From an uncultured Clostridia bacterium (GTDB taxonomy: Bacteria; Bacillota; Clostridia; TANB77; CAG-508), in the NCBI GenBank assembly GCA_944393395.1, contig CALYAB010000002.1, positions 1-55,760 of the forward strand: a stretch of DNA of 55,760 bases, read 5' to 3'. A program made the position numbers and the translations under genes. Below, in pieces: positions 4,264 through 49,418 of this stretch. Numbering within the stretch: position 1 is the first letter of the stretch; each line of letters begins with the position of its first letter. The notes beneath the pieces are model-generated. The model did not search any database. It was not told where the DNA came from and saw only the letters and a program-made list of their open reading frames with translations.

Positions 4264-4337
4264 CTTCCTCTCTTGATTTCTACTAAAATTTTTGATACAA
4301 TTAAGTAGAAATCGTATATTTATGTAATTGTTTTGAG

Positions 4338-5312: not shown

Positions 5313-5378
5313 TTTCTAATCACTTCCCTTCTTTTTATTTTTCTGCTATAATTACTCTGAAAGTGAGGTATTTAAATT

Positions 5379-5732: not shown

Positions 5733-5877
5733 AATAGATATTAAGGTTGCCATTGAAAATCCTAGTGCGAAATATTGAAATCTGCTAGGTTTTCCTTTTT
5801 CTTCTCGAATAACTTTTTTAAGTTCTTTATTTTCCAATTTTAATTTCTCTGTTTCTTCCATCTTCTAACCTCTTTTC

Positions 5878-6144: not shown

Positions 6145-6281
6145 TTTTTTCACCTCCTTGATTACTGTTGTAATCATTATATTATTACTGATTACTTTTG
6201 TCAAGCTTTTTTATAAAATTTTTTAAAAAATATTTACATTTGTAATCAATTGTAGTATAATCAAGCCATAGGAGGTATGAA
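6145..6281. promoter_or_regulatory. phage immunity switch: divergent consensus sigma-A promoters with GATTAC-N4-GTAATC operators
   Basis: Rightward promoter: TTTACA (6233-6238), 17 nt, TATAAT (6256-6261). Leftward promoter: TTGACA (6204-6199), 17 nt, TATAAT (6181-6176). Operators: 6160-6175 perfect, 6190-6205 and 6232-6247 imperfect. Confidence 0.6.
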
Positions 6282-6978: not shown

Positions 6979-7131
6979 GAAATGTGTTGAAAAAATAACG
7001 CAACTCGACACATTTCTCTAACTATAAAGACCCTTGAAAGAAGGTTTCTTTATGCTATTTATTATAGCATACCATAAAACCTTTTTTCAAGAGCTTTAGT
7101 AATAAAAAAATAAAAGAAAGAAGGTTTTAAT

Positions 7132-9492: not shown

Positions 9493-11217
9493 TTATTTAA
9501 CTATATTTAGCATTGCCTCTTTTAGTTTTTCTAATTTCTCATTTGCATCTTCATTTGTTTTACCTTTTATTCCCATATATAGTTTTATTTTTGGCTCAGT
9601 TCCAGAAGGTCTAACACAGCACCAACTGTCATCTTCCAATTCATAATATAAAACATTTGATTTTGGAAGACCTGTCTTTGTTACTTCTCCTGTTACCATA
9701 TCTTTAACAAAATCTTTTTCTATATCTTTAAATTTTAAAACTTTATATTCACCAATTTTTTCTATTTCTTTATTTCTTGTATTTGTCATCATTTGTTTTA
9801 TTTCTTCTGCACCTTGAGCACCTTCTCTAACAATAGAAACTTGAGTTTCTTTGTAATATCCATATTTTTCATATATATCAATCATTTGATCCCATAAAGT
9901 TTTACCTTTTGATTTATAGTAACATGCTGCTTCACAAAGTGCCATTACAGCAGCAATACCATCTTTATCTCTTGCATAATCTCCTATTAAACAACCATAA
10001 CTTTCTTCAAATCCAAATATATATTCCTTATCTTTATTCTCTTCAGCTTTTCTCATTATAGCGCCAATGTTTTTAAATCCTGTTAATACTTCAATTACTT
10101 CTAATCCATAATTATTTCCTATTGCTTTTGTTAGGTTTGAAGATACTATTGTTGTTATTATCATTCCATTATCTGGTAATATTCCTTTTTCTTTCATTTG
10201 CGAAATTCTATATTCAGCTATTAATAAAGCTGACATATTTCCCGTATAATCCTTATATTCTCCTGTTTTTGTATCTTTTGCATATACACCTAATCTATCT
10301 GCATCTGGATCAGTTGCTAATACAATATCTGCATCTACCTTTTTGGCTAATTCTAATGCTAATTTAAATGCTTTTGGATCTTCAGGATTTGGATAATCTA
10401 CTGTTGGGAAATCTCCATTTGGATCTTTTTGCTCTGGTACAACATATAAATTAGCTATTCCTATTTCTTTTAATAATCTTTCTGCTACCATATTTCCAGT
10501 TCCATGTAATGGAGTATAAACTACTTTAAGGTCTTTCCCTTGTTCTTTTACTATTTCTGGATTTAATATCAAGCTTTTTAGTTTTTCTATGTATTTATCA
10601 TCCATTTCTTTTCCAACAATATTAAGTAATCCTTTAGATTTTGCCTCTTCTTCTGAAATTTCTTTTATTTCTGTAAAACTTTCAACTGCTCTTACTTTTG
10701 CAATAATATCTTTATCTCTTGGAGCTACTATTTGAGATCCATCATCCCAATATACTTTATATCCATTATATTTTGGTGGATTGTGACTTGCTGTTATCAT
10801 TATTCCTGCTGTACATTTTAACTCTCTTACTGCAAAAGATAATTCAGGAACAGGTCTCAAATTTTCGAATAAATATGTTTTTATTCCATTAGCACATAAA
10901 ATCAATGCTGTTTGTAAACTAAACTCTTTAGACATTCTTCTTGAATCATAACTAATTACTACTCCTTTGTCTTGTGTTCCCTCTTCTAATATATAATTAG
11001 CTAAACCTTGTGTTGCCTTTCCTACTGTGTATTTGTTCATTCTATTTGTACCAGCACCAATAACTCCTCTTAATCCTGCTGTACCAAATTCTAACTCTTG
11101 ATAAAATCTGTCTTCTATCTCCTTCTCATCATCTTTTATTGCTAGTAATTCTTTTTTTGTTTCTTCATCAAACTCTGGACTTTCACACCATTTCTTATAC
11201 TCGTCTAAATAATTCAT
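9493..11217 (-). CDS. phosphoglucomutase / alpha-D-phosphohexomutase
   Basis: 574 aa. Active-site TASHNPPKYNGYK, Mg loop DPDADR, GFEESYG sugar-binding motif. Confidence 0.85.
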   Translation of the reverse strand: MNYLDEYKKWCESPEFDEETKKELLAIKDDEKEIEDRFYQELEFGTAGLRGVIGAGTNRMNKYTVGKATQGLANYILEEGTQDKGVVISYDSRRMSKEFSLQTALILCANGIKTYLFENLRPVPELSFAVRELKCTAGIMITASHNPPKYNGYKVYWDDGSQIVAPRDKDIIAKVRAVESFTEIKEISEEEAKSKGLLNIVGKEMDDKYIEKLKSLILNPEIVKEQGKDLKVVYTPLHGTGNMVAERLLKEIGIANLYVVPEQKDPNGDFPTVDYPNPEDPKAFKLALELAKKVDADIVLATDPDADRLGVYAKDTKTGEYKDYTGNMSALLIAEYRISQMKEKGILPDNGMIITTIVSSNLTKAIGNNYGLEVIEVLTGFKNIGAIMRKAEENKDKEYIFGFEESYGCLIGDYARDKDGIAAVMALCEAACYYKSKGKTLWDQMIDIYEKYGYYKETQVSIVREGAQGAEEIKQMMTNTRNKEIEKIGEYKVLKFKDIEKDFVKDMVTGEVTKTGLPKSNVLYYELEDDSWCCVRPSGTEPKIKLYMGIKGKTNEDANEKLEKLKEAMLNIVK

Positions 11218-21303: not shown

Positions 21304-21350
21304 TAAGGTGGTTTATAATGTATAAAACTATATATAAAAAGGAGTTTATT

Positions 21351-24300
21351 ATGAATGAAATATTACATGTTGGACTTGATGTCGGATCTACAACAGTTAA
21401 AATAATAGTAATGGACAATAACAAAAATACTATATATTCGGATTATCGTAGACATTTCTCAGACGCCAAAAAAACAGTTTGTGAAGTTTTAGAAGAATTA
21501 TTATTAAAATATCCTTCTTATTCTTTTACAATTGCATTAACAGGTTCTGGTGCAATGTCTGCCGCAAAATTTTTAGGAGTTGATTTTATTCAAGAAGTTA
21601 TCTCTTGTAAAAGAGTTATCGAAAAATATTTTCCTAAAACAGATGTTGTTATCGAATTAGGTGGAGAAGACGCTAAAATCATTTATTTTGATAATTCTAT
21701 TGAACAGAGAATGAACGGTACATGTGCTGGTGGAACTGGTGCATTTTTAGACCAAATGGCTTCTCTTTTACATACAGATACAGCAGGATTAAATGAGTTA
21801 GCTAAAGGATATCAAACTATTTATCCAATTGCTTCTCGTTGTGGAGTTTTCGCAAAAACTGATATACAACCCTTAATAAATGAGGGGGCTGCCAAAGAAG
21901 ATATTGCAGCTTCTATTTTCCAAGCAGTTGTAAATCAAACAATTAGCGGTTTAGCTTGTGGAAGGCCTATTAGAGGCAATATTGCGTTTTTAGGAGGTCC
22001 TTTAAGCTATCTTTCAGAATTAAGAAAACGTTTTATTGAAACTTTAAACTTAACAGATGAACAAATTATAATACCTGAAGAAGCACATTTATTAGTTGCA
22101 AAAGGTGCTGCCTTAGATTCTTTTAATACAGAAGTGATTACACCTGATGAATTAGAAAAAAAGATTGAAAACTTTAAAAATTCTCATGATACAACAACTC
22201 AACCTTTAGATCCATTATTTAAAGATGAAGATGAATATAAAACTTTTAAAGAAAGACATAATAAAGCAAAAGTTACTGAAAAACCTTTAAAAGACTATGA
22301 AGGTGATTGTTTTTTAGGAATTGATGCTGGTTCTACTACTACAAAGCTTGTATTGATTGATAAAGACGGTAATTTACTATATTCTCTATATGGAAGTAAT
22401 GAAGGAAATCCACTACAAAGCGTTATGGATATGTTAAGAAAACTATATAAAGAATTACCTGAAAAAGCAATTTTAAGATATAGTGGTGTTACAGGTTATG
22501 GTGAAAAACTAATTCAAACAGCATTAAATGTAGACTTAAATGAAATTGAAACAATAGCACATTATACAGCTGCCAAAACTTTTGAGCCTGACGTAACAAG
22601 TATTGTTGATATTGGTGGTCAGGATATGAAATATATAAGAATTAAAAATGGATCTATTGATAATATCATGTTAAATGAAGCATGCTCTTCTGGATGTGGT
22701 TCTTTTATAGAAACATTTGCCAAAAGTTTAAATTTGGAAATATCTGAATTTGTAAAAGAAGCTATAAAATCAAGAAAACCTGTTGATTTAGGTTCAAGAT
22801 GTACAGTATTTATGAACTCTAAAATAAAACAAGCACAAAAGGAAGGATATTCTGTTGGAGATATCTCAAGTGGATTATCATATTCTGTAATAAAAAATGC
22901 CATCCAAAAAGTTATGAAGGTAAGAGATGTAGAAACTTTAGGAAAACATATTGTTGTTCAAGGTGGTACTTTTTATAATGATGCTGTCCTTAGAGCTTTT
23001 GAGCTTATTGTTGGTAAAAATGTTGTAAGACCAAATATCTCTGGATTAATGGGTGCTTACGGAATGGCTTTACTTTCAAAAGAACAATATGAAGCAAATA
23101 TGGATATGGAATATACATCTACCATATTAAAAACAGATGAATTAGATAATTTAAAAATTAAAATTACACATACACATTGTAATAATTGTGAAAACCATTG
23201 TAAATTGACAATCAATAAGTTTAGTAATGGCCAAATACATGTAACAGGTAATCGTTGTGAAAAAGGTGCTGGAATTGTTACAAAAGCAAAAAATTTACCT
23301 AATTTAGTACAATACAAATATGAGAGAATTTTTGATTATACACCAATAGAAGAGCAATATGCAACAAGAGGAACAATAGGAATCCCTAGAGTTTTAAATA
23401 TGTACGAAGATTATCCTTTCTGGTTTACATTCCTTTCAAGCTTAGGTTTTAGAGTTATCATATCTGAAAAAAGTACTAGAAAAACCTATGAAAAAGGTAT
23501 GGAATCAATGCCTTCAGAATCTGTATGTTATCCTGCAAAACTTTCTCATGGTCATATTGAAAGTTTACTAGAACAAGGAATCAACACTATATTTTATCCT
23601 TGTATGCCATATTCAAGAAAAGAATATAAAAAAGCAGATAACCATTATAATTGTCCTATTGTTATCTCATATTCTGAAGTATTAAAAAATAATGTTGAAG
23701 GATTAAAAAATCCTAAAGTAAAATTCTTAAATCCATTCTTACCTTTTGATAAAAAGAATTTAGTAAAAAAGATTTTAGAATTAGATGAATTTAAACAATA
23801 TAAATTTACAAAAGAAGAACTATATGAAGCAGCTGACAAAGCTGAAAAAGAATATCAAAAATGTAAAGAAGATATTAGAAGAAAAGGTGCTGAAACAGTA
23901 AAATACATAGAAGAAAATCACTTAAAAGGTATCGTATTAGCAGGTCGTCCTTATCATGTGGATCCAGAAATTAATCATGGTATTGATACATTAATTACAT
24001 CATTAGGATTATGTGTATTAACAGAAGATAGTATCTCAAATCAAACAGAAGTTAAAAGACCAATTAGAGTTGTTGACCAATGGGTATATCATGCAAGACT
24101 TTATGCAGCAGCTGATTTTGTTGGTAAACATGACTCTTTAGAATTAGTTCAATTAAATTCTTTTGGATGCGGTGTAGATGCTGTTACAACAGACCAGGTT
24201 GAAGAAATTTTATCTAGTTATGATAAAATGTATACTTTAATAAAAATAGATGAAGTTAATAACTTAGGCGCAGTTAGAATTCGTATACGTTCTCTTTTAG

Positions 24301-25694
24301 CTAGTATGAATAAACGTGAGAAAGAGAAAAAAGAAAATAATGCTACTGGTGATTATGAACAACATAAAAAAATATTTACAAAAGATATGAAAAAAGATTA
24401 TACAATTTTAATACCACAAATGGCACCAATCCATTTTGAATTGCTAGAATCTGCCGTAAAATCTACTGGATATAAAGTAGAATTATTAAGAAAATGTACT
24501 CAAAAAACTGTTGAAACAGGATTAAAATATGTTAATAATGATGCTTGTTATCCTTCAATTTTAGTTACTGGACAAATGATTGAAGCACTTCAATCTGGTA
24601 AATATGATTTAAATAAAACTGCTTTAATTATGTCACAAACAGGTGGAGGGTGCCGTGCAACAAATTATATAGGATTTATAAGAAAAGCTTTAAAAGATGC
24701 AGGATTTGAAAATATACCAGTTATTTCATTTAATATTGTTGGTATGGAAAAAATGCCTGGATTTAAAATAACAGTACCATTAATAGAACGTCTTTTAAAA
24801 ACTATATTATATGGTGATCTATTACAAAAAATGTTAACTAAAAATAGAGCTTATGAAAAAAACAAAGGTGAAACACAAAAATTATTTGATACATGGATGG
24901 AAAAATGTAAAAAACTACTTGAAAAATCAACAAATAAAGAATTTAAACAAAGTATTTATGATATTGTAAATGATTTCGAAAAAATAGAATTAGATACAAC
25001 AATTGAAAAACCTAGAGTTGGTATCGTTGGAGAGGTTTTAATTAAATATCATCCTTTTGGAAATAACTTTGTTGCAGATTTATTAGAAAAAGAAGGTGCT
25101 GAAGTAATATTACCAGACTTTATGGGATTTGTTAAATTTATGGCTACACATAAAATTACATTTAATAATCTATTAAATACAAATAAAACTTCTTCAAAAA
25201 TTATGAAAGCAGCTATAAAATTAATAGATATATTAGAAAAAGATATGAAAATAGCTTTAGCAAATTCTAAAAAAGGATATTTACCACCTTGTGATATTTG
25301 GCACTTAGAAGAAAAAGTAAAAGATGTATTATCTATTGGAAATCAAACTGGTGAAGGCTGGTTCTTAACAGCAGAAATGATAGAATACATAGAACATGAT
25401 ATCCCAAATATTATCTGTGTTCAACCATTTGCTTGTTTACCAAATCATGTAGTTGGTAAAGGTGTTATAAAAACAATTAGAGAAAAATACCCAAATGCTA
25501 ATATTTCACCTGTTGATTATGACCCAGGTGCTAGCGAGACTAATCAAGCAAATAGAATTAAGTTATTAATGACTGTTGCTAAAGATAACCTAAAAGCAAA
25601 ACAAAATAGACAAAAAGCTATTGAAAAAGAAAATGAAATTGTGCCAGAGCCACATAAACAATCAACTAATGAAGTTGAGAAAATAAATAAGTAA
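21351..25694 (+). CDS. 2-hydroxyacyl-CoA dehydratase activase-related fusion protein (two BcrAD/BadFG ATPase modules + DUF2229-type CoA-enzyme-activase domains)
   Basis: About 1447 aa from the SD-supported ATG at 21351. Two acetate/sugar-kinase-type ATPase repeats (LHVGLDVGSTTVKI, FLGIDAGSTTTKLV) with cluster-helix Cys motifs, then a long C-terminal activase-associated region. Confidence 0.75.
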   Translation: MNEILHVGLDVGSTTVKIIVMDNNKNTIYSDYRRHFSDAKKTVCEVLEELLLKYPSYSFTIALTGSGAMSAAKFLGVDFIQEVISCKRVIEKYFPKTDVVIELGGEDAKIIYFDNSIEQRMNGTCAGGTGAFLDQMASLLHTDTAGLNELAKGYQTIYPIASRCGVFAKTDIQPLINEGAAKEDIAASIFQAVVNQTISGLACGRPIRGNIAFLGGPLSYLSELRKRFIETLNLTDEQIIIPEEAHLLVAKGAALDSFNTEVITPDELEKKIENFKNSHDTTTQPLDPLFKDEDEYKTFKERHNKAKVTEKPLKDYEGDCFLGIDAGSTTTKLVLIDKDGNLLYSLYGSNEGNPLQSVMDMLRKLYKELPEKAILRYSGVTGYGEKLIQTALNVDLNEIETIAHYTAAKTFEPDVTSIVDIGGQDMKYIRIKNGSIDNIMLNEACSSGCGSFIETFAKSLNLEISEFVKEAIKSRKPVDLGSRCTVFMNSKIKQAQKEGYSVGDISSGLSYSVIKNAIQKVMKVRDVETLGKHIVVQGGTFYNDAVLRAFELIVGKNVVRPNISGLMGAYGMALLSKEQYEANMDMEYTSTILKTDELDNLKIKITHTHCNNCENHCKLTINKFSNGQIHVTGNRCEKGAGIVTKAKNLPNLVQYKYERIFDYTPIEEQYATRGTIGIPRVLNMYEDYPFWFTFLSSLGFRVIISEKSTRKTYEKGMESMPSESVCYPAKLSHGHIESLLEQGINTIFYPCMPYSRKEYKKADNHYNCPIVISYSEVLKNNVEGLKNPKVKFLNPFLPFDKKNLVKKILELDEFKQYKFTKEELYEAADKAEKEYQKCKEDIRRKGAETVKYIEENHLKGIVLAGRPYHVDPEINHGIDTLITSLGLCVLTEDSISNQTEVKRPIRVVDQWVYHARLYAAADFVGKHDSLELVQLNSFGCGVDAVTTDQVEEILSSYDKMYTLIKIDEVNNLGAVRIRIRSLLASMNKREKEKKENNATGDYEQHKKIFTKDMKKDYTILIPQMAPIHFELLESAVKSTGYKVELLRKCTQKTVETGLKYVNNDACYPSILVTGQMIEALQSGKYDLNKTALIMSQTGGGCRATNYIGFIRKALKDAGFENIPVISFNIVGMEKMPGFKITVPLIERLLKTILYGDLLQKMLTKNRAYEKNKGETQKLFDTWMEKCKKLLEKSTNKEFKQSIYDIVNDFEKIELDTTIEKPRVGIVGEVLIKYHPFGNNFVADLLEKEGAEVILPDFMGFVKFMATHKITFNNLLNTNKTSSKIMKAAIKLIDILEKDMKIALANSKKGYLPPCDIWHLEEKVKDVLSIGNQTGEGWFLTAEMIEYIEHDIPNIICVQPFACLPNHVVGKGVIKTIREKYPNANISPVDYDPGASETNQANRIKLLMTVAKDNLKAKQNRQKAIEKENEIVPEPHKQSTNEVEKINK

Positions 25695-29112: not shown

Positions 29113-29580
29113 TTAATCTGGTTCAAATGTATATTGTTGATCCTCTTTATCTATCGTTACGACCAGTTGAGTTTTATTTGAATCATTTAACTCTAAATAT
29201 AGCTTTAATTCACTTTCATTTTCATCATATGAAGTTACAGTTATTTGATCTGCATCAACTAATCCATTTAAATAAATATACTCTTTAAGCTTTAATATAA
29301 AATCATCATAATTTTGAATTTTACTTATAATTTCATCTGTCATTCCCTGTATATCTATTTCAAAATTATCTAATTGACTTTCATTATATTCTATTCCGCT
29401 TTCTTCTTCATTTGTAATATCATCCTCTTCCGTATTTTCATTTATTTCTTCTTGAATATTTGTGTTAGTTATATTTTCTATACTATTATTATCTTTTTTA
29501 TAGAATACAAGAAAACCTATTATTACTATAATCATTATTAAAATTATAAGCATAATAATAATTAAACTTTTTTTACTCAT
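29113..29580 (-). CDS. membrane-anchored acidic protein, last gene of the secretion locus
   Basis: 155 aa. N-terminal TM LIIIMLIILIMIIVIIGFLVF, acidic ectodomain. AAGGAG SD. Confidence 0.4.
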   Translation of the reverse strand: MSKKSLIIIMLIILIMIIVIIGFLVFYKKDNNSIENITNTNIQEEINENTEEDDITNEEESGIEYNESQLDNFEIDIQGMTDEIISKIQNYDDFILKLKEYIYLNGLVDADQITVTSYDENESELKLYLELNDSNKTQLVVTIDKEDQQYTFEPD

Positions 29581-40584: not shown

Positions 40585-41745
40585 CTATTTAGATTGGTTA
40601 TCAATTAATTCTTTTGCATCTTCAACAACGTCTGTCCCTAATATTTCTTCATTTTCATCTAATAAATTCTTTGCAACTACATCTATTAATTCATCCATTT
40701 GTTCTTCTCTTTGCTTTACTTTTCTTGCCTTATCTTGATTCATCATAGCCTCTATAGCCATTTCATTTGCTTTTATGTTTGCTTTTGCCTCTATTTCTTT
40801 GTTAATTTCTATCATTCTCTTATCTAGTACATTTTTAGCTGTTGCATATAATTCATTTACTCCTGCTTTTATAGCTTTTTCTAAGTCATATACTTCTGAT
40901 TCATCTCTGTTATATGCTACATATAATAATTCTGCTAATTCTTCACTATTCAAAACTTTTCCTGAAACACCACAAACTCCAATTGAACTTATTAACGCCT
41001 GTGCCTTAGTATATAAGTCTGAAAAAGCCATATTTTTTAATTCATCATCACCATATTTTGTAATAGTACTTTCTTCTGGTGTATGTGATATTACTATATA
41101 GTAATGTTTCTTTAATATGTTTTTATTTAAATTCATTTTTTCTGTATTATCTATAATATCTAATCCATATTCATATAAATTTTGTACTTTAACTAATTCA
41201 AACTTAGCTTCATTTAACTCTTTTTGACTATATGTACCTGAATTTAGCATTGTATTATATTCCATTTGCCTTCTAACATAATTGTCTCTTATTTCACTAA
41301 CTTTTGTTTTATATCTATTAATACTACTTCCTAAATTTACAGTTCTAGTTTGTACATATAATTGAATAGGATATCTTAATGTGTTAAGAAATTGCAAAAA
41401 ACCTTGCTCAACACTATTTTTCTCCAAGTTAGACATTAAGTCATAATTTATTCCTTGACATTCAATTACCATGATATATTTTTGGCGAGTCTTTTTTATT
41501 ATCATATTATCTTCTATTTTTTCAAATTCCATAAAGCTAAAAATTGAATTTTTATTATATTCCACTCCATTTTTTATTTGTGTACTGTCTTCTGATGAAT
41601 TTTTTCCTTCATTATATCTTTTTTTCTTATCTTTATTTTTTTCTTTTAAACTTAAAGTAATAAATACTGCTAATAATACAAATAATATTACTAATAAAAT
41701 TGCTAATGCGATTGCAAGAAAGCTACTTATTTGATTCTCGTTCAT
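40585..41745 (-). CDS. TM-anchored protein of unknown function between the VirB3-like and VirB4-like genes
   Basis: 386 aa. N-terminal TM FLAIALAILLVILFVLLAVFITL. GAGGAGGA SD. Overlaps the upstream gene and lies 12 nt from the downstream gene. Confidence 0.4.
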   Translation of the reverse strand: MNENQISSFLAIALAILLVILFVLLAVFITLSLKEKNKDKKKRYNEGKNSSEDSTQIKNGVEYNKNSIFSFMEFEKIEDNMIIKKTRQKYIMVIECQGINYDLMSNLEKNSVEQGFLQFLNTLRYPIQLYVQTRTVNLGSSINRYKTKVSEIRDNYVRRQMEYNTMLNSGTYSQKELNEAKFELVKVQNLYEYGLDIIDNTEKMNLNKNILKKHYYIVISHTPEESTITKYGDDELKNMAFSDLYTKAQALISSIGVCGVSGKVLNSEELAELLYVAYNRDESEVYDLEKAIKAGVNELYATAKNVLDKRMIEINKEIEAKANIKANEMAIEAMMNQDKARKVKQREEQMDELIDVVAKNLLDENEEILGTDVVEDAKELIDNQSK

Positions 41746-42085
41746 CTTTTATTTCCTCCTCTTTCCACATATACACTTTATTCTTTTTTTGCTTGAATTT
41801 TATCCATCTTTTAATAACATCATCTATATTTTCTCCCCCTGTCTTTTTGGCAAATTCAAACTTTTTTGTGTCTGGAATTTTAAATGTTCCTACTACAAAG
41901 CCTATAGCTCCAAAAATAACATCACAAATAATTCCAGCAATCTGCATTCCTAAAGCATCTAATATAAAATAAAATATTAATCCTATCCCCATAGCAACTA
42001 TTGTATAAATTAATGCTTTAGTTGAAAAAATATATAGTATTCTACTTTCTCCTTTATAATTTCTAGGAATTTCATAGGTTTTCAT
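41723..42085 (-). CDS. PrgI/VirB3-like small membrane protein
   Basis: 120 aa. N-terminus MKTYEIPRNYKGESRILYIFSTKALIYTIVAMGIGLIFYFIL and a second TM match the PrgI-family layout. First gene after the internal terminator. Confidence 0.5.
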   Translation of the reverse strand: MKTYEIPRNYKGESRILYIFSTKALIYTIVAMGIGLIFYFILDALGMQIAGIICDVIFGAIGFVVGTFKIPDTKKFEFAKKTGGENIDDVIKRWIKFKQKKNKVYMWKEEEIKDERESNK

Positions 42086-42250
42086 TTGTTTTTCACTCCC
42101 TTACATTTAACTACAATTATATATAATTATAACATAAAATCCGCTTAAAAGTATATATTTTTACAAAAAAAAACAATTTTAATTATATTGTAATTTGTAT
42201 GTAATAGTATTGTAACAGTCACTTCTTAACATAAATAAAAGAAAAGTATT

Positions 42251-42288
42251 AAAAAAAAGAGGTAAAACTTTTAAAAGTCTTTTACCCC
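42251..42288 (-). terminator. rho-independent terminator after the fourth pilin-like gene
   Basis: On the minus strand, GGGGTAAAA...TTTTACCTC stem followed by eight U (forward A-run 42251-42258). Confidence 0.6.
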
Positions 42289-42306
42289 TAATTATTAATG
42301 TTTCAT

Positions 42307-42669
42307 CTATCCTGATAATCCTGATGTGAAGTTGAATACTACTGCTGCTATACTTGATGCTGCAAATACAAATGCTGCACCTATTAAATATGGTAATAAA
42401 GTTTTCTTATACTCAGCTTTTTCTTCTGCACTACCCATCATATATTTCAAACCTAAAACAACTAAAACGATAACTGATGCAATTGATCCAACTGTACTTA
42501 CTATTTGAATTATTTTATTACCTAAACCTTCTATAGAGCCAACATCAGCTCCTCCACCGACATATCCACCAGGGTTAACTCCAGAAGAACCACTTGCTGC
42601 ATTTACAGTTACTGTTAAAATTGTCATTAACATACACATTATTAATAATATTTTTACTGTTTTTTTCAT
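42307..42669 (-). CDS. VirB2/TrbC/CagC-like pilin paralog 4
   Basis: 120 aa. Signal peptide ending VNA-AS, a hydrophobic helix, the loop GLKYMMGSAEEKAEYKKTLLPYLIGAAF, and a second hydrophobic helix. Confidence 0.6.
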   Translation of the reverse strand: MKKTVKILLIMCMLMTILTVTVNAASGSSGVNPGGYVGGGADVGSIEGLGNKIIQIVSTVGSIASVIVLVVLGLKYMMGSAEEKAEYKKTLLPYLIGAAFVFAASSIAAVVFNFTSGLSG

Positions 42670-42745
42670 GGCTTTTTCCTCCTTTTATAATAATATTACT
42701 TATAATTTAAGTATTAGTATATTATCACTATTTATTATAGCACTT

Positions 42746-43099
42746 TTATATATCAATTGCAAATTCATATATAATTTTTGCTATACCTGAAGCGCAAAAT
42801 ATAAATGCTGCTCCTATTAGATATGGTAACATTGAACTTTTATATTCTGCCTTTTCTTCAACACTACCCATCATATACTTTATACCTAAAACAATAATTA
42901 CAATTACAGATAATATTGATCCCACTGTGCTCAATATTTGAACTACTTTATTTCCAGCTGATTGTATATCTCCTGTTCCAGTGGTATCTCCTTTTATGTC
43001 ACTCAGCGACCAAGCGTTAACAACACTTTCCATTGTTACTATCATTGTTATAAAAACAATTATAACTAATACAATCTTTAAAAAATTTATTATTTTCAT
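42746..43099 (-). CDS. VirB2/TrbC/CagC-like pilin paralog 3
   Basis: 117 aa with the same architecture. Loop GIKYMMGSVEEKAEYKSSMLPYLIGAAF. Confidence 0.6.
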   Translation of the reverse strand: MKIINFLKIVLVIIVFITMIVTMESVVNAWSLSDIKGDTTGTGDIQSAGNKVVQILSTVGSILSVIVIIVLGIKYMMGSVEEKAEYKSSMLPYLIGAAFIFCASGIAKIIYEFAIDI

Positions 43100-43112
43100 A
43101 TTTTTTCTCCTA

Positions 43113-43502
43113 TTATTGAATTATATTTACTATAATTTTCCATATAGTAAAAGCTCCAAATACAACTACACATGAAATTACATATGCTGGTAAAGTTTCT
43201 TTTATGTCAGCTTTATCTTCTGTTGTAGAAGTCATATATTTAATACCTAAAACCATTCCCACTATTACAGCTACTACCATACTAATTCCTAGCAATACAT
43301 TATATAAAAAGTCAGATGTATCTTTCAAACTATCGGTGTCAATTGTCTTATCTACATCTTTATCTCCACCACCAGCATCAATGAAATCATCTGCTCCTTC
43401 CATTATTTGATCTAATGATGTCGCTGTTGCACTTACATTGTTTGGATATATAATAATAAGAAATAGGATAAGAATCATTGTGAATATTAATAATTTTTTC
43501 AT
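43113..43502 (-). CDS. VirB2/TrbC/CagC-like pilin paralog 2 (most divergent)
   Basis: 129 aa. Signal peptide ending VSA-TA, acidic variable segment, loop GIKYMTSTTEDKADIKETLPAYVISCVV. Confidence 0.55.
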   Translation of the reverse strand: MKKLLIFTMILILFLIIIYPNNVSATATSLDQIMEGADDFIDAGGGDKDVDKTIDTDSLKDTSDFLYNVLLGISMVVAVIVGMVLGIKYMTSTTEDKADIKETLPAYVISCVVVFGAFTIWKIIVNIIQ

Positions 43503-43525
43503 ATGCCTCTCCTCCTTTTCTTATT

Positions 43526-43885
43526 TTAAAAATCCCCAACCATATTTTGTATAATTCCTAAAATATTAGTTATACCAAAAACTAATACTGCTCCAATAAC
43601 ATATGGTTTTAACGTCTTTTTATATTCAGCTTTATCTTCTACACTGCCCATAATATATTTTATTCCTATAACAATTAATGCACCTACAGAAACTATTGAG
43701 CCTATTACTCTAACTGTTCCTACAATATCATTTGCCATATTTTTAAATTTATTAGCCCCAGTTACTTCTGTTAATGAATCTGGTTTATATTTACTGGTAG
43801 AAATAGCTAATACATTGCTTACTAAAAGAATAATGGCTATATATATTAATAATGCAAAAATTATTTTTTTTCTATGCTTTTTCAT
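43526..43885 (-). CDS. VirB2/TrbC/CagC-like pilin paralog 1
   Basis: Track ORF runs to 43909. The start at ATG 43885 (MKKHRKKIIFALL...) gives a canonical signal peptide. Loop GIKYIMGSVEDKAEYKKTLKPYVIGAVL. Confidence 0.55.
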   Translation of the reverse strand: MKKHRKKIIFALLIYIAIILLVSNVLAISTSKYKPDSLTEVTGANKFKNMANDIVGTVRVIGSIVSVGALIVIGIKYIMGSVEDKAEYKKTLKPYVIGAVLVFGITNILGIIQNMVGDF

Positions 43886-44133
43886 TATACCACCATCCTT
43901 TTTAGACATATTTCTCTATTTAATTATACCTTATTTTTTTTATTTTCGCAATACAATATGTCGATTTTTATATTATTTTATATGAAATATTGTTACTGTT
44001 TAGATTGTATGTTATTTGCTCAATATGTTTCTCAAAGATATATATTATTATTTTTTAAGTAATACACTGAACAATAATGTTACAAATAGTAATGTTAATA
44101 AACAGTTGAATTAAGTATCAACTGCTTATTAAC

Positions 44134-44394
44134 CTATATAAGAACTAATTCTGTCCCATTTTTTATATCATTATCTTTTATAGTTTTATTGATATCATAA
44201 GGTTCTGCTGATAATTTGTCATATAATAATGGCATAGTAGCTGGCCTATAATATCCTCCACTACTTTCATTTATTATTTTAATAAGTAAAAGGATTATTC
44301 TATATACTTTTTTGTTTATTGGAATCCAAAAATCATAATTTTCTTCTAATGCTGGAACATATATACTTACTAATATTTTATTCATCCTCATCAC
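44134..44394 (-). CDS. YukD/EsaB-like ubiquitin-fold T7SS protein
   Basis: About 83-86 aa, overlapping the essC stop. Pattern VSIYVPALEENYDFWIPINKKV...DIKNGTELVLI matches the YukD family layout. The start codon is ambiguous. Confidence 0.6.
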   Translation of the reverse strand: MMRMNKILVSIYVPALEENYDFWIPINKKVYRIILLLIKIINESSGGYYRPATMPLLYDKLSAEPYDINKTIKDNDIKNGTELVLI

Positions 44395-47300
44395 CGTCTT
44401 CTTTCATTTCTAAAAGTTTTATAAATACTGCTATACCATCTTTTATTATATATCCAAAACTACGTCCACAATTATTTTTTAGTTCTCTTCTATTTGAATT
44501 TATATTAATCAAATATTGATTATCAATTCCATTTCCTACCCATATACCGTCTTCTTTTGTTATATAATTCTTATACCATGGTTCAAACTCATGTGATTTT
44601 AATTTGTTTGCATTTTCTACTAATATAAAACTATAATTACCATTTTCTTCTAATTGTTTCATATTTGATTCAAAATTAATTGCAATGTCACTATAATCTG
44701 ATAAGAATTTATCTATACCAATAATTATACACATATTATGTTTTTTGTTATTTTTATCGACCTCAGAAATAAGCTTATTGTACTGTTCTTTTAGATCTAT
44801 TTTTTCTTCTATTAAGGCTTTTTCTGCATCAAATATAATAGTTTCAACATTTTTTAGCTTTTTAAACTCTTCTAAAATGTTTGCTGTAAATTGTACTGCA
44901 TCTTCTGTATTTTTTGAAATAATCAGAGTCACAAATCTTTTTCTAAAATTATATGTGTATACTTTAAGTTTTTTCTCTGTTATTCCTATTGGCACTTTTG
45001 AAATATCTTTTAAAGAACTCTCTACACTTTTGAAAGTTACAATCTCTGGTAAGATTGCTATAGGTTCAGCATTTACAGTTATTTTTTTCTTTAATTCTTG
45101 AATTTTCTCTCTTATGTTTTCTGTATATTTTTCTGGTTCACAGATTTTAGCTGTTTGGAATTCATATATTTCATCTCTATCCATTTCAAGTAGCCCTCTA
45201 CCAAACATGCTTGATGGCCTCTTTTTGCCAACTTTATCAAATATACTATAATAATCATTTTCATCATTTAATTGTAATGCTATTTTCTGTTTAAAATTTT
45301 GTGTTAAACGATATCTCATTGAGTTATATGCATTAGCTGTAACTACAAATACAATTCCACATTTAGTACTTTCTCTTTCTAAAGCCTGAATCATATCTTC
45401 ATAGTCATCTCCATATGTTTCTGAAAATACATCCCAATTGTTTATCACTATTACAATCATCGGCATTTTTTTGTTACTTGTCTTTAGATATAATTCATAA
45501 TCACCATTATATTCTAGCAATTCGTCTTTTCTTTCTCTAATTTTTTCTTGAATCATGTTGAAGAATCTATTTATTTTTTCTGTATCATTTATAAATACAA
45601 CATCACCTACTTGTGGACTTTCTCTATATATTTTTAACGCTTCAGTTCCAAAGTCTAACAAATATAATTGTACTTCTTCACTAGTATGTGTTGTTATTAA
45701 ATCATATACCATTGTACTTAAAAATGTTTCTTTTCCGCTGTCTGCATTTCCATAAATAACTGTATTTCCATTATTAGAAAGGTTTAATGTTACTACACCT
45801 TGGCGTTGATTAAATGGATCATCATATTCACCAACAACTGGCTTTATAATATTTGGCTTAGTTTTTACTTGGTATTTCTTTCTCAAGTCTTTTACAAAAA
45901 TTGTTTCTGGTATATTATCTAACCAAAGTGGATCTGTTTGTATTTCTTGTTGTTTTCCTAATAAATATAAATATCTTACTATATTAGTTAATTGCTCACC
46001 TTTGTCTACCAAAACTTTTTGTACTGTATCATCAACTTGTTTGATTGGCGTTCCTACATCAGATATAAGTTGTATAGAATTGTCAACCTTTTTTTCTATC
46101 ATATCTGAAGGATAATATGAAGCTCCTGACCATCCAGATTGTCCTAATACAAAATATTCGTCATTTCCAACTTGTAAATAAAATTGTCCTGCTGTTTTTA
46201 ATGTTGCAGCATCAGGTCTTTTAATTACATCTGTACTATCTTGCTTATCTTGTACTTTTAAACATACTGCAAATTTACTATTACTACGAATTTGATCATT
46301 TACTACTCCTGCTGGTTTTTGAGTTGCTAATATTAAATGAACTCCTAAACTACGGCCTATTCTTGATACACTCATTAATTCTTCCATAAAGTCTGGTTGT
46401 TGTTGCTTTAATTCTGCAAACTCATCACATATAATTAATAAGTGTGGTATTGGTTTCTCAACAATTCCGTCATGATATAGTTTTTGATATTTATAAATAT
46501 CTATTGTACCACCATCTGTTAGATTTCTAGCTTCATTAAACATTACTTGTCTTCTTCTTAATTCACTTTGTATTGAATCTAGTGATCTTTGAAGTTCATT
46601 TGTATCTATATTTGTAATTGTTCCTACTAAGTGTGGCAGTTTAACATCTCTTTTAGCAAAAGCTCCTGCCAAGCCACCACCTTTATAATCTATTAATATA
46701 AATGTTACATCATCTGGATGATAGTTTATTGCAAGTGATAATATATATGTAATTATAAACTCACTTTTTCCAGATCCTGTGGTTCCTGCAATTAGACCAT
46801 GTGGCCCATGAAATTTTTCATGAATATCTAAATATATAGTCATCCCTGATGTATCTACCCCTATTGGTGCTTTTAACGATAATGTAGGATCATTTCTATT
46901 CCATCTTTCCAATATGTTTAATTGTTCTATACGCCCAACATCATACATTTCTAAGAATGAATAATTTGTTGGTAACATATATCCTCCTGTTTCTGTATAT
47001 TTTATTGGAATATTAGATATTTTTTGACATATCCTTTCAAAGAATATTTTTACTGAATTGTCTAAAGTTATTTGCTTTTGATTTGTTGATGATATCTCGT
47101 TTTCAAATATCATCCCTGTATTATTTTGAATATCTAAGTTAATAAATGTTTTACATTCATTTGGTAATTGTAATAAATCATTTGCTATACACAAAAGACT
47201 AAATCCTACATTTTCTTTTATTTTTAAAATTTCTGTAATTATTTTTAGATTTTCTATTTTTTTATAATTATTAGTAATTATTAAATAATATGGTCTAAAT

Positions 47301-48982
47301 CCTTTATAGTTTTTGTCTTTGTAATTTAATCTATTTTGTAACTCTATTTCTAAATATTTAGAAATATCCTTCATTTCATCATTATCATATGAAAAGAATC
47401 TCATTTGTTTTGTTTTGTCCCATACATGTGGTAATAATTTCACATAGTCCAAATTTTGATTTTCATCTTTATCTAATAAAAATACTAATTTTAAATCTTC
47501 ATAACTATGAAATGCAATTAATTGAACAATTAAACTTCTTAAAAAATTGTCAATATTTTCATTTTTATTTACTATTAATGATGATATGTTTTTTTCTGCA
47601 AGTGATACTGTAATTGGTGCAGATTTAATTATTTTAGATGTATCTGCTATTTCATTCAATATTTCAACAAGATTGTCATCTTCCATCATAAATCTTTCTT
47701 CTGGATATTGAATGTCAATATCTGTTTCTACATCGCCTGTTCCTAATCTAACAGTAAGAAAATCATAATCATCGATTCTTCTTTCCCATAAACGCCCACT
47801 TTTGTTTAATATAAGTTGCGTACATTCTTCAGGTGATAAATTATTTTCATATAATATGCTTTTTTGTTTTAGCATAATTTTATTTATTTTTTCTTTCTTT
47901 TTCAATAAGTATTCTTTATATCTCTTTTGACGTTTTTCCTCGTATTTCTTCTTTTTCCTTTTATTCCATCTATTTGTTAAAATTGGAAAAAGTATTATTG
48001 CTATCATCATTACTAGTGCTGTAATTACTGTTAAAACAGTTTGCTTTGAAGACGACTCTCCACTCATCGATCTATCTATTGCACTATACATAGATACCAG
48101 CATAATAACTCCCATTGACATAGAAGATCCTAATGTTAAAATAAGTGGCATATCTTCTTTATCTTGAGCTTGTGGTGGAGCATCTATTTTTACTTTTTCT
48201 CTTTCTATTACATTTGTTATTCTTGGTGCTCTTGAAAAATATTCATCATCTTTATACATTTCTATGTATCTTTCTTCTTGGTTGTCTGGTTTAGGTCTGT
48301 CGATTTTCCTACTTCCTAATGTAAATATTTCTCCATTATAATATAGATTTTCTTCTGGATTATTAACAAAAATTTTGTCACCCATCAATATAATCTTTAA
48401 TCCCATTATAAAGATTACATCACCATTAAATAACATTTTTCTTGTTTTTTCAGGTACTGCTTTTCCATTAACAAATGTTCCAAAATTTTTGTCGTAATTT
48501 TCTAACATCCAATTATTTTCATATAAATATATTTTTGCATGTACTTTTGCAGTCATCTTATTCCTATACGAAATTGGATTTTTTGCATCTCTTCCTATAA
48601 GGAAAGCTTCTCTCTTTTTTAAATTCAGTTGTACAAGATTTTTTTCAAAACTTGGCAGACAGCAAAGAATAAACAATTCTTTAGAATTATAAAATGTTAC
48701 ACCATACATTTTATACTCTTCTAAAATAATTGTTTTTCCTTTATCTCTATTATCTTGATATACTTTTATTCCATTAGTTTTTTCATCTATCTCTATAAAT
48801 TTTAAGTCTATTATTTTTGTTTGTGGATTATTTACCAGTTGCCATTTTCCATTTTTTCCTTCTACATTGATTAGTTTTCTCTCATTCTTTTTTTTATGGT
48901 CTGTCAACCAGTAATTTCCTTCTACTACCCTTGGCAAAGACAATTTATATAGAGTATTTTTGCCTATTAATGTTAGTTGCAT
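44378..48982 (-). CDS. essC: EssC/YukB type VIIb secretion FtsK/SpoIIIE-family ATPase (FHA N-terminus, 2 TM, three P-loop domains)
   Basis: Long stretches are near-identical in pattern to S. aureus EssC: FLEMYDVG...WNRND, HEKFHGPHGLIAGTTGSGKSEFIITYILSLAINYHPDDVTFILIDYKGGG, ICDEFAELK, RIGRSLGVHLILATQKP, SNSKFAVCLKVQD. Second P-loop is GNADSGKET. SD favours the ATG at 48982. Confidence 0.9.
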   Translation of the reverse strand: MQLTLIGKNTLYKLSLPRVVEGNYWLTDHKKKNERKLINVEGKNGKWQLVNNPQTKIIDLKFIEIDEKTNGIKVYQDNRDKGKTIILEEYKMYGVTFYNSKELFILCCLPSFEKNLVQLNLKKREAFLIGRDAKNPISYRNKMTAKVHAKIYLYENNWMLENYDKNFGTFVNGKAVPEKTRKMLFNGDVIFIMGLKIILMGDKIFVNNPEENLYYNGEIFTLGSRKIDRPKPDNQEERYIEMYKDDEYFSRAPRITNVIEREKVKIDAPPQAQDKEDMPLILTLGSSMSMGVIMLVSMYSAIDRSMSGESSSKQTVLTVITALVMMIAIILFPILTNRWNKRKKKKYEEKRQKRYKEYLLKKKEKINKIMLKQKSILYENNLSPEECTQLILNKSGRLWERRIDDYDFLTVRLGTGDVETDIDIQYPEERFMMEDDNLVEILNEIADTSKIIKSAPITVSLAEKNISSLIVNKNENIDNFLRSLIVQLIAFHSYEDLKLVFLLDKDENQNLDYVKLLPHVWDKTKQMRFFSYDNDEMKDISKYLEIELQNRLNYKDKNYKGFRPYYLIITNNYKKIENLKIITEILKIKENVGFSLLCIANDLLQLPNECKTFINLDIQNNTGMIFENEISSTNQKQITLDNSVKIFFERICQKISNIPIKYTETGGYMLPTNYSFLEMYDVGRIEQLNILERWNRNDPTLSLKAPIGVDTSGMTIYLDIHEKFHGPHGLIAGTTGSGKSEFIITYILSLAINYHPDDVTFILIDYKGGGLAGAFAKRDVKLPHLVGTITNIDTNELQRSLDSIQSELRRRQVMFNEARNLTDGGTIDIYKYQKLYHDGIVEKPIPHLLIICDEFAELKQQQPDFMEELMSVSRIGRSLGVHLILATQKPAGVVNDQIRSNSKFAVCLKVQDKQDSTDVIKRPDAATLKTAGQFYLQVGNDEYFVLGQSGWSGASYYPSDMIEKKVDNSIQLISDVGTPIKQVDDTVQKVLVDKGEQLTNIVRYLYLLGKQQEIQTDPLWLDNIPETIFVKDLRKKYQVKTKPNIIKPVVGEYDDPFNQRQGVVTLNLSNNGNTVIYGNADSGKETFLSTMVYDLITTHTSEEVQLYLLDFGTEALKIYRESPQVGDVVFINDTEKINRFFNMIQEKIRERKDELLEYNGDYELYLKTSNKKMPMIVIVINNWDVFSETYGDDYEDMIQALERESTKCGIVFVVTANAYNSMRYRLTQNFKQKIALQLNDENDYYSIFDKVGKKRPSSMFGRGLLEMDRDEIYEFQTAKICEPEKYTENIREKIQELKKKITVNAEPIAILPEIVTFKSVESSLKDISKVPIGITEKKLKVYTYNFRKRFVTLIISKNTEDAVQFTANILEEFKKLKNVETIIFDAEKALIEEKIDLKEQYNKLISEVDKNNKKHNMCIIIGIDKFLSDYSDIAINFESNMKQLEENGNYSFILVENANKLKSHEFEPWYKNYITKEDGIWVGNGIDNQYLININSNRRELKNNCGRSFGYIIKDGIAVFIKLLEMKEDGDEDE

Positions 48983-49041
48983 TAACATCACCTTTTCTTC
49001 TGCGCTTTATATACTTTTTATCTCTTTAGTAGATTCTCGGT

Positions 49042-49362
49042 TTATTCATGAGCTAGTTTTAATCTCTCTTGACTTTTGTATAATTGACCTAATCTTAAAC
49101 TTAAAACCTTAACTTCTGAATTATTTATATAATCTATGTCTAACATAGCTTCAGAAACAGATTTTTTAGCTTCTATCTCGTCTATAAAATCTACTTTGTT
49201 TAATAATTTTACTAATTCATCTTTTGTCTTTTGTATATCTATATCTAAATCTGAATTAATCTTTCCTTGTATTAGTTTTTGTTTAGCTATTTCGAATATT
49301 TTTGATGAAAGTTCATTAATCTCCTGTAAGTTCTTACTTTCTTCTTTTTTTTCACTTACCAT
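49042..49362 (-). CDS. small all-helical protein (candidate T7 chaperone/adaptor or small substrate)
   Basis: 106-aa ORF, GGTGA SD, predicted coiled coil, directly upstream of essC. Confidence 0.35.
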   Translation of the reverse strand: MVSEKKEESKNLQEINELSSKIFEIAKQKLIQGKINSDLDIDIQKTKDELVKLLNKVDFIDEIEAKKSVSEAMLDIDYINNSEVKVLSLRLGQLYKSQERLKLAHE

Positions 49363-49418
49363 ATATATTTCACCTACTTATTTATCATCTATTCAGATAT
49401 ATTTGTATCTTTATTTGG

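Follow-up and report, generated by a model that had tools for sequence, protein, structure and literature searches.

Can a Gram-positive bacterium carry VirB2-type pilins, and what would it do with four of them side by side? The question is raised by a 55,760-nucleotide stretch of contig CALYAB010000002.1 (GenBank assembly GCA_944393395.1) from an uncultured Clostridia bacterium of the chicken gut, called the window below, whose minus strand holds four small tandem genes between positions 42,307 and 43,909. The original prediction, made from the sequence alone, read them as VirB2/TrbC-like pilin paralogs inside an operon of a type VII secretion system (T7SS). We consider it likely that the four open reading frames (ORFs) encode Sec-exported, two-helix VirB2/TrbC pilins, and that they form a dedicated operon of a chromosomally fixed, origin-proximal type IV secretion system (T4SS) of the MPF_FATA-like kind. 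The T7SS genes next to them are treated here as a separate neighbour.

The four genes and the secretion machinery behind them

The genes are given below with their scores against the two Pfam pilin models, PF18895 (T4SS_pilin, gathering cut-off 26.6 bits) and PF04956 (TrbC/VirB2, gathering cut-off 27.9 bits).

43526..43885, minus strand: pilin paralog 1, 119 aa (127 aa from an alternative upstream ATG at 43909); PF04956 42.2 bits, PF18895 37.9 bits
43113..43502, minus strand: pilin paralog 2, 129 aa; PF18895 33.0 bits, PF04956 25.3 bits, below cut-off
42746..43099, minus strand: pilin paralog 3, 117 aa; PF18895 35.9 bits, PF04956 31.7 bits
42307..42669, minus strand: pilin paralog 4, 120 aa; PF04956 40.6 bits, PF18895 34.8 bits

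In the ORF list the tandem frames appear as 43909-43526, 43502-43113, 43099-42746 and 42669-42307. Paralog 1 probably starts at the second ATG (43885), because this codon is preceded by a ribosome-binding site (GGATGGTGG) and was also picked by the gene callers in 6 independent metagenome assemblies.

PF18895 is passed by all four proteins (33.0-37.9 bits) and PF04956 by three of them (paralogs 1, 3 and 4), with paralog 2 falling short by 2.6 bits. The E-values against the two models range from 1e-5 to 1e-11, and the alignments span nearly the full models. The proteins also share one layout. According to hydropathy, a K-rich N-terminus leads into a hydrophobic leader that ends at an AxA-like cleavage site; after a hydrophilic mature N-segment of about 22-37 residues come two further hydrophobic helices. 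Cleavage, predicted by the -3/-1 rule only, would fall between VLA and IS in paralog 1, VSA and TA in paralog 2, VNA and WS in paralog 3, and VNA and AS in paralog 4. Paralogs 2-4 are 33-41% identical to paralog 1 in pairwise comparison; 16 columns are invariant among the four, mostly in the two helices and the loop between them (G-I/L-K-Y...E-x-K-A...K...Y), and a 92-nt DNA core is present four times across the array at 71-76% identity. From the Pfam E-values and the shared layout, the original observation is confirmed, far beyond chance. All the elements that had been described (four tandem small genes, leader, variable segment and two-helix hairpin) were recovered at their places.

The four proteins differ in details that turn out to be characteristic of their positions. 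Paralog 1 is of a position-1 type, recognised by a conserved motif at the mature N-terminus, Y/W-K-P-x-S...V-x-G-A-x-K. Paralog 2 is the most diverged and has an acidic mature N-segment, as the original prediction said. Paralog 4 has a Gly-rich mature N-segment, is the most conserved of the four and is nearest to the family consensus. The loop motif G[IL]KY[MI]xGSxE[ED]KAEYKxxLxPYxIGA, which had been ascribed to all four, is exact in paralogs 1 and 4 and has one mismatch in paralog 3; it does not hold for paralog 2, whose loop reads KYMTSTTEDKADIKETL.

The family to which these proteins belong is large. Of 8,000 candidates that were scored, over 7,900 (clusters at 90% identity) proved significant, and at 50% identity 6,452 clusters had E<=0.001. 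Most database matches are 57-82% identical to paralog 4. Searched against PDB sequences, the family profile met a single protein, the VirB2 pilin TrwL of R388 (8s6h), which aligns in register and weakly (E 0.55); when the family profile was aligned to TrwL with hhalign, the E-value was 0.007 and the probability only 5%. AlphaFold2 modelled full-length paralog 4 from a 68-sequence alignment with helices at residues 2-26, 44-78 and 81-119 and a predicted local distance difference test score (pLDDT) of 76. The mature protein was modelled with the same hairpin (helices 19-54 and 57-95), and the pLDDT of the paralog 4 models ranged from 76 to 78.

Downstream of the array, on the same strand, lies a block of secretion genes.

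41723..42085, minus strand: PrgI family protein (VirB3-like), first gene of the machinery block; PF12666 28.5 bits, cut-off 27
40585..41745, minus strand: TraC-like protein, 386 aa; precomputed match to PF26593, weak match to NF045975 positions 48-408
38623..40572, minus strand: VirB4-family ATPase, 649 aa; NF045971, NF045975, TIGR00929 and Pfam P-loop_TraG, AAA_10 and DUF87
38347..38619, minus strand: small secreted or membrane protein, about 86-90 aa; an ORF called as a gene in 6 assemblies
35670..38363, minus strand: VirB6-like polytopic membrane protein, 897 aa; NF045848 (MMCAP2_0566 conjugal transfer family) E 6.8e-9, multiple hydrophobic segments
34222..35586, minus strand: conserved T4SS-cluster protein, 454 aa; syntenic in relatives, no Pfam, NCBIfam or PDB match
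33212..34174, minus strand: conserved T4SS-cluster protein, 320 aa; syntenic in relatives, no family match
29593..33189, minus strand: giant cell-wall hydrolase, 1198 aa; PF01551 E 1.2e-33, PF18013 1.7e-26, PF13529 1.5e-13
29113..29580, minus strand: single-pass membrane protein at the cluster end, 155 aa; weak matches only, including the CD3337/EF1877 mobilome membrane protein

The ATPase scores best against NF045971, the CD1110-family VirB4 (E 1.9e-60), followed by NF045975 (1e-54) and TIGR00929 (1.9e-24), all below the equivalog cut-offs. VirB4 is seemingly split in this cluster: on NF045975 (VirB4_plasma, 894 positions) the ATPase covers positions 316-883, and the membrane-anchored TraC-like protein weakly covers 48-408. 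The split is common to all relatives, and the TraC-like protein is probably the detached N-terminal part of VirB4. The hydrolase combines M23 endopeptidase, lysozyme-like and C39-like peptidase domains and is the last gene of the cluster in relatives; it is the functional analogue of VirB1. The small protein at 38347..38619 had no family match. PDB sequence searches with the 320-aa, 454-aa and VirB6-like proteins returned nothing, and no VirB8-like component was recognised by them.

Residues 167-242 of the VirB6-like protein (about nt 37638-37865) form a predicted helix-loop-helix that resembles the pilins. This part matches PF18895 with E 1.2e-4 and scores 32 bits against the family's own pilin hidden Markov model (HMM), and its loop, SQDKAKYRQML, has the motif of the pilin loop, SAEEKAEYKKTL. 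The hairpin may be a built-in nucleation site for pilin polymerisation. The weak PF18895 match also recurs in two orthologs of the VirB6-like protein (loci L083 and L089).

By gene content, the set corresponds to a Gram-positive (MPF_FATA-like) T4SS. When 6 distinct relatives were anchored on their pilin genes, they had four pilin units (five in one of them) followed by PrgI, TraC-like, VirB4, VirB6-like and hydrolase genes, the order being counted where downstream sequence exists; loci L090 and L093 end at the fourth pilin gene. The Pfam thresholds and this conserved T4SS gene context together support the assignment of the four proteins as VirB2/TrbC-class pilin homologues. The pilin identity proposed from the sequence was thus upheld by the HMM search, with two Pfam pilin models above cut-off in a T4SS neighbourhood; the families that Pfam assigns are pilin families and not those of unrelated small membrane proteins.

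On the other hand, the parts expected of a mobile conjugation system were not encountered. No relaxase and no type IV coupling protein (T4CP) of the VirD4/TcpA type was found with Pfam, and for some with NCBIfam, among the 45 window ORFs of at least 100 aa that have no larger gene overlapping them antisense. The cluster has neither a VirB5 tip protein nor an outer-membrane complex. A single integrase occurs in the window; it is part of a prophage-like region some 21 kb off, beyond intervening housekeeping genes, and a tblastn search of paralog 4 against 72,556 PLSDB plasmids gave no match. We rejected an integrative and conjugative element (ICE) as the nature of this locus on account of its conserved housekeeping flanks and the lack of an adjacent integrase or relaxase.

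Transcription of the array and its T7SSb neighbour

The following features lie around the array and upstream of it. The promoter-like sites come from a consensus scan and are predicted.

49042..51925, minus strand: rest of the T7SSb module, with tandem WXG100, 72-aa, 427-aa and 106-aa proteins; co-conserved with essC in the closest relatives
48991-44378, minus strand: essC, 1537 aa; TIGR03928 EssC equivalog 999.9 bits, cut-off 778.4
44394-44134, minus strand: yukD-like gene, 86 aa; YukD Pfam match of only E 0.11, positionally conserved beside essC
44094..44133, minus strand: strong hairpin directly 3' of yukD, 16-bp stem, -20.6 kcal/mol, z = -7.3; no clean U-run
43923..43951, minus strand: promoter-like site upstream of the array, TTGCGA-17-TATAAT
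42734..42763, minus strand: second promoter-like site, in the spacer between paralogs 3 and 4, with extended -10 TGcTATAAT
42251..42289, minus strand: intrinsic-terminator-like hairpin with U8 run 3' of paralog 4, -13.8 kcal/mol, z = -2.9

In three of four relatives the -35/-10 block before paralog 1 can be aligned, and these three agree in every letter of the AAGGTATAATTAAAT stretch. In the spacer between paralogs 3 and 4, TATAAT is invariant across all 6 species and the surrounding spacer is diverged. A hairpin with a U-run occurs at the same place behind paralog 4 in 4 relatives with unrelated sequence (z = -3.9 to -5.9), and the terminator that had been noted after the fourth gene was found at 42289-42251. 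The hairpin at 44094..44133 lies between the T7SS module and the pilin genes. Since a hairpin follows yukD, the promoters are conserved and terminator function is conserved after paralog 4, the array is predicted to be a transcription unit of its own within the T4SS locus.

A chicken-gut metatranscriptome (run X25) contains contigs over the T4SS genes, two of them over the pilins, and almost none over essC (44.1-49.3 kb). Over positions 33000-52500 the top depth was found at the VirB6-like gene (35.6-37.5 kb). These data are weak evidence, as contig depth is a poor measure of expression.

The upstream neighbour itself is, by its domain matches, a bona fide T7SSb module and not part of the pilin unit. 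Its WXG100 protein (207 aa, 51302-51925, minus strand) scores 44.4 bits against PF06013 (cut-off 27.3). It consists of two ESAT-6-like halves, matched by TIGR03930 at residues 9-95 and by NF035934 at residues 123-202. EssA, EssB and EsaA homologues were not detected in the module with Pfam and NCBIfam.

We examined the linkage from the side of essC in 73 loci from different species genomes, all of uncultured gut Clostridia or Bacilli. The essC-yukD pair is kept in nearly all of them. Where the sequence reaches 1.5 kb or further downstream (56 loci), no pilin was adjacent; pilin genes were 8.4-9.3 kb away in 3 of the 38 loci with at least 8 kb downstream, and T4SS genes were upstream in 1 of the 43 loci with at least 8 kb upstream. 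One metagenome-assembled genome (CAKNJL01) carries two essC loci, L007 and L017. From the side of the pilins, 4 sampled relatives (loci L083-L085, L088, L089 and L090) have the array directly after mnmE-mnmG-rsmG-parA-parB-DUF4446 with no T7SS between, apart from a PMT_2-type glycosyltransferase gene (PMT_2) that stands between DUF4446 and the array in three of the four; the locus thus keeps one origin-proximal place on the chromosome in all four. The T7SSb module fills the gap from DUF4446 to the array only in the lineage of the window, the near relative L093 being arranged alike. In locus L009 the same T7SSb module is placed after the T4SS cluster instead.

Because the array has its own promoter, a hairpin follows yukD and adjacency to essC is not conserved, its membership in a T7SS operon, which the original prediction had assumed, is not supported; the gene order of the relatives suggests that the essC-yukD module merely abuts the T4SS in this lineage. 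The further idea that the pilins are handled by the EssC module fares no better. The array goes with PrgI, VirB4 and VirB6, not with essC. A T7SS substrate would be a Sec-independent hairpin without signal peptide, and all four proteins have Sec-type signal peptides and two transmembrane helices; none has a WXG100 or LXG Pfam match.

Conservation of the four positions and the alternatives

Proteins at the same array position are 53-73% identical across 6 species, compared with 28-49% between different positions. By position, the ortholog identity averages 56% for paralog 1, 53% for paralog 2, 53% for paralog 3 and 73% for paralog 4 (87% in its core). The mature N-segment has 33-53% identity among orthologs and 14% among paralogs, with an N-terminal motif of its own at each position. 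Within the species, contigs from 4 independent chicken-gut metagenomes show 0-3 differences in 1,983 bases across the array; a surplus of depth at the paralog 4 core in the metagenomes is due to co-resident relatives.

A dN/dS comparison was made with one near relative of 94-96% amino acid identity. The gene-wide values of all four paralogs are 0.12-0.34, so that all four pilin genes are under purifying selection. The N-segments give higher values: 1.05 for paralog 1 (4 nonsynonymous and 1 synonymous changes), 0.37 for paralog 3 and 0.71 for paralog 4 (8 and 4), counts that are very small and too few to show positive selection. Nonsynonymous changes are concentrated in the N-segments of paralogs 1, 3 and 4, and the cores of paralogs 3 and 4 have none. 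No invertible elements or long high-identity repeats were found, the repeat search giving only the diverged gene cores and AT-rich chance matches. The alignments indicate that the N-segment is the fastest-evolving and paralog-defining part, and that the paralogs form an ancient, stable quartet of positional orthologs and not a rapidly varying cassette system. The N-termini had been called hypervariable. This is right insofar as they are specific to each paralog; they are conserved among orthologs and nearly invariant within the species. Variation of a surface-exposed part, also suggested, is not supported in the sense of rapid variation, given the few strain differences, the conservation among orthologs and the lack of repeats for switching, although the changes between near relatives do cluster in the N-segment.

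Natural poly-pilins, with one signal peptide and 2-5 hairpin units, also occur in relatives (P0121, P0122, P0123, P0001 and P0003, and L086 at 10001-10657). Each unit carries the conserved loop GIKYMxGSxEEKAEYKKT, and P0121 has five pilin units in 450 aa. Such fusions are topologically compatible and force their units into co-expression. Because of the positional orthology, the 2-5-unit fusions and the pilin-like hairpin of the VirB6-like protein, we favour an assembly in which one heteromeric pilus or wall-spanning conduit would be built from the four paralogs. The heteromeric filament of the original prediction is therefore plausible, and it is in the orthology and the fusions that its plausibility lies.

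Several observations weigh against this interpretation as a whole. Paralog 2 is below the TrbC (PF04956) cut-off, and the best NCBIfam match of all four proteins, the Mycoplasma ICE pilin-like conjugal transfer protein Mbov_0395, is also below its cut-off. Foldseek searches of the PDB with the full-length and mature paralog 4 models gave no match with E<=0.001, and the method does not discriminate among helical hairpins, since EsxA and the c subunits of ATP synthase reach equal scores. Outside the window, the genome could still encode a T4CP or relaxase. The metatranscriptome depth of the pilins is not above that of the machinery genes, so the high expression of a major pilin is not supported. 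T7SS and T4SS modules are less than 10 kb apart in the window, L093, L082, L030, L032, L033 and L009, which is commoner than random placement and makes a loose functional link possible. Finally, the filament, its surface exposure and the co-assembly of the paralogs are all inferred.

How far do other explanations account for the same data? The four proteins may be VirB2 homologues that act only as membrane or channel components of the T4SS, with no extracellular pilus. Pilins are required even in pilus-less T4SSs according to a 2025 review, VirB2 being needed for transfer in several pilus-less Gram-negative systems, and the Gram-positive T4SSs studied to date show no pili; the lack of a VirB5 tip protein and of an outer-membrane complex, as well as the modest metatranscriptome depth, would also fit. 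Four paralogs with distinct N-segments, a dedicated promoter and terminator, and fusions of 2-5 units fit a polymer better, and we regard a channel without pilus as unlikely; polymer length is the sole difference between it and the heteromeric pilus or conduit that we favour. Slightly less probable still is a variation system, in which four alternative subunits would each make their own pilus, to escape immunity or phages or to reach different target cells. This role has been proposed in the literature for multi-copy VirB2, namely the Bartonella Trw trwL and Anaplasma virB2 paralogs, and here the mature N-segment is the part that diverges most between paralogs and gathers the nonsynonymous changes against the near relative. 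However, orthologs are conserved at every position in 6 species, each position with a characteristic N-terminal motif, same-species contigs hardly differ, and there are no elements for switching or gene conversion. One promoter and one terminator are common to all four genes, natural fusions force several units to be co-expressed, and the dN/dS counts are too small for positive selection.

A hybrid machine, with the pilins as substrates or partners of the EssC T7SSb or with EssC as the coupling ATPase of the T4SS, could be suspected from the adjacency of pilins and essC-yukD in the window and its near relative L093, from the proximity (less than 10 kb) of T7 and T4 modules in L082, L030, L032, L033 and L009, and from the missing T4CP; moreover, FtsK-family ATPases couple in some Gram-positive systems, and pRAW needs both T4SS-like and T7SS functions. 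We hold it to be very improbable. The pilins have classical Sec signal peptides, a hairpin and a conserved promoter separate the two units, pilins are adjacent in no essC locus of the 56 and lie less than 10 kb away in only 3 of 38, four sampled relatives carry the array and T4SS without upstream T7SS genes, EssC is a full T7SSb equivalog with WXG100 and YukD partners of its own, and the metatranscriptome covers the T4SS and hardly essC. Finally, the HMM matches might reflect nothing but hydrophobic composition, to which transmembrane proteins are prone, and the genes might encode unrelated small membrane proteins (holin-like, bacteriocin immunity or ATP-synthase-c-like); the Foldseek search, which yields only generic hairpins at insignificant scores, leaves some room for it. 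Yet two independent Pfam pilin models are passed at curated cut-offs with near-full-model alignments, the similarity is driven by the conserved charged loop, the place directly upstream of PrgI/VirB3-VirB4-VirB6 is invariant in all relatives, and the only PDB match is a VirB2 pilin aligned in register. This makes it the least probable of the alternatives, and close to negligible. The holin, immunity-protein and T7-substrate readings were rejected on the Pfam pilin models, the loop-driven similarity, the T4SS context and the Sec signal peptides.

VirB2/TraA pilins are inserted through Sec with their termini outside and the loop in the cytoplasm; they are extracted by VirB4 and polymerise on VirB6, and in the polymer the loop faces the lumen and the termini point outward. 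By analogy, each pre-pilin of the present array would be inserted through Sec and its leader cleaved, leaving the N- and C-termini outside and the K/E-rich loop in the cytoplasm. VirB4 would then extract the subunits for polymerisation on the VirB6-like platform, whose own hairpin may nucleate assembly, and the hydrolase would open the peptidoglycan. The resulting polymer would have the conserved loop on its luminal side and the paralog-specific N-segments on its outer face. Paralog 4 is our candidate for the major subunit, because it is the most conserved, nearest to the consensus, provided with its own conserved promoter and adjoining the machinery genes. For paralogs 1-3 we propose minor or specialised roles (initiation, tip or adaptor), in place of the missing VirB5. 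As for the role of the T4SS, conjugation is unlikely, because the locus lacks a relaxase and a coupling protein and keeps a fixed place on the chromosome; by analogy with other T4SSs that have no relaxase, contact-dependent exchange or adhesion appears more likely.

Chromosomal setting and counterparts in other systems

The window is otherwise chromosomal, with rsmG, parA, parB and DUF4446 at one end, followed by spoIIR, murA, rlmH, GerM and other housekeeping genes. At 21318-25694 on the plus strand lies a gene for a 1458-aa fusion of two BcrAD/BadFG-type ATPase domains and DUF2229 (2-hydroxyacyl-CoA dehydratase activator-like), whose neighbours, a DnaJ-domain protein and an ABC transporter, border the T4SS cluster. 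The far end, 1-8326, is the end of a prophage-like integrated element with the following genes.

605-1549: DUF6291/T5orf172 protein
2683-3306: ERF recombinase
3306-4124: DUF1351
6282-6641: HTH regulator
7157-8326: tyrosine integrase

Three relatives (L080, L081 and L085) carry a different element, with integrase/excisionase genes, immediately upstream of their pilin arrays.

According to the December 2025 T4SS review, VirB2 and VirB5 are not found in Gram-positive T4SSs with the exception of the Patescibacteria, which are the only monoderms with potential for conjugative pili. The original prediction that a four-pilin array is unusual for a Firmicute is in line with this statement. Our literature search on VirB2 with EssC or VirB4 in Firmicutes, on pCP13 and on gut-Firmicute pilin arrays gave nothing relevant beyond this review and the Patescibacteria paper.

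The closest analogue is in fact the T4SS of the Patescibacteria, as in Ca. Southlakia epibionticum and Ca. Nanosynbacter lyticus TM7x. That system has an MPF_FATA-type VirB4 and 2-11 divergent VirB2-like pilins, is located near the origin, is usually relaxase-less, and is essential in Ca. Southlakia (PMC12102498, PMC12857230). Both sides have a monoderm MPF_FATA set (VirB3/PrgI, VirB4, VirB6 and hydrolase), and both have tandem divergent VirB2-like arrays that are found by PF04956/PF18895, are chromosomal and often origin-near, and usually come with no relaxase. They also differ. The hosts there are ultra-small epibionts, whereas here the host is a spore-forming, Clostridium-like Firmicute (spoIIR, GerM, T7SSb). 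The arrays of these Candidate Phyla Radiation (CPR) bacteria are highly variable, with a mean identity of 25%, in contrast to four fixed positional orthologs of 53-73% here. A VirD4-like component is reported at the Southlakia locus and none was found in this window.

Other systems share single features. The Bartonella Trw system (multi-copy trwL/VirB2 and trwJ/VirB5) and the virB2 arrays of the Rickettsiales have tandem variable VirB2 genes and no coupling protein, and the role proposed for them is pilus surface diversity, not DNA transfer. However, they are diderm MPF_T systems of intracellular pathogens with VirB5 and an outer-membrane complex, and their copies are thought to supply variation; in the present array, by contrast, each position is conserved. 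The Mycoplasma ICE T4SS provides the best NCBIfam matches for the pilins (Mbov_0395), VirB4 (Mbov_0397) and the VirB6-like protein (MMCAP2_0566), and it is a monoderm system in which a pilin-like conjugal transfer protein is already annotated; the matches are all sub-equivalog, and those ICEs are mobile with a single pilin-like gene, unlike the present non-mobile locus with four. With the Gram-negative VirB2/TrbC/TraA pilins (R388 TrwL, 8s6h) the present proteins share the Pfam family, a long signal peptide, the two-helix hairpin with its short polar loop and the gene position just upstream of virB3-virB4. The similarity to TrwL is weak (E = 0.55), the mature N-segment is longer here (about 25-40 aa), there are four paralogs against one, and cyclisation or acetylation enzymes, VirB5 and an outer membrane are all missing here. 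The mycobacterial plasmid pRAW also has T4SS-like and T7SS modules side by side in a monoderm-type organism, but both are required for transfer there, while here the adjacency is not conserved and no functional link is seen.

Plasmids of Clostridium and Bacillus carry the closest plasmid relatives of the VirB4 protein, at 30-42% identity: the C. botulinum pINGR16-02E1 group, C. beijerinckii p1, C. perfringens pJFP838A and B. thuringiensis BTB_502p. Their genes are in the same order (PrgI-like, TraC-like, VirB4, large membrane protein, hydrolase), and PLSDB types them as non-mobilizable. They differ in having a single pilin-like gene with marginal similarity (Pfam E 0.0013; from E 4e-5 to non-significant with our own HMM). 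The pilin-like genes encode 136-152 aa and are located at 7104-7514 in L091, 7138-7554 in L092, 5890-6348 in L096 and 3549-3992 in L097. They stand just upstream of the PrgI-like gene in L091, L092 and L096, and about 2.7 kb further upstream in L097 (BTB_502p, 147 aa). Those of L091, L092 and L097 were read through and have a signal peptide, helix, loop and helix. Unrecognised VirB2-like genes may thus be widespread in Firmicute plasmids typed as non-mobilizable.

Our widest explanation is offered tentatively, as a possibility to which we give less than even chances. It is that uncultured Clostridia of the gut form a clade that, probably together with related Bacilli, has a vertically inherited, origin-proximal and non-conjugative T4SS with a heteromeric VirB2-type pilus of four fixed paralogs; this would be the first such pilus in a classical Gram-positive, the Firmicute counterpart and possible evolutionary source of the essential pilin-array T4SS of the Patescibacteria, and it would serve contact-dependent exchange among gut cells.

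What is new is a monoderm T4SS with a VirB2 array in a phylum where recent literature says such pilins do not occur. Spore-forming gut Clostridia here show the design of the Patescibacteria: the VirB2 genes form an array, the site is chromosomal and close to the origin, and no relaxase was found in the window. If the pilins polymerise, the architecture of the Gram-positive T4SS would need revising, and the origin of the Patescibacteria system would become testable through VirB4 and pilin phylogeny. The fixed paralogs and the poly-pilin fusions would then also provide a system for studying how minor pilins substitute for VirB5, and the single-pilin-like plasmid versions in culturable Clostridium may offer an experimental entry point.

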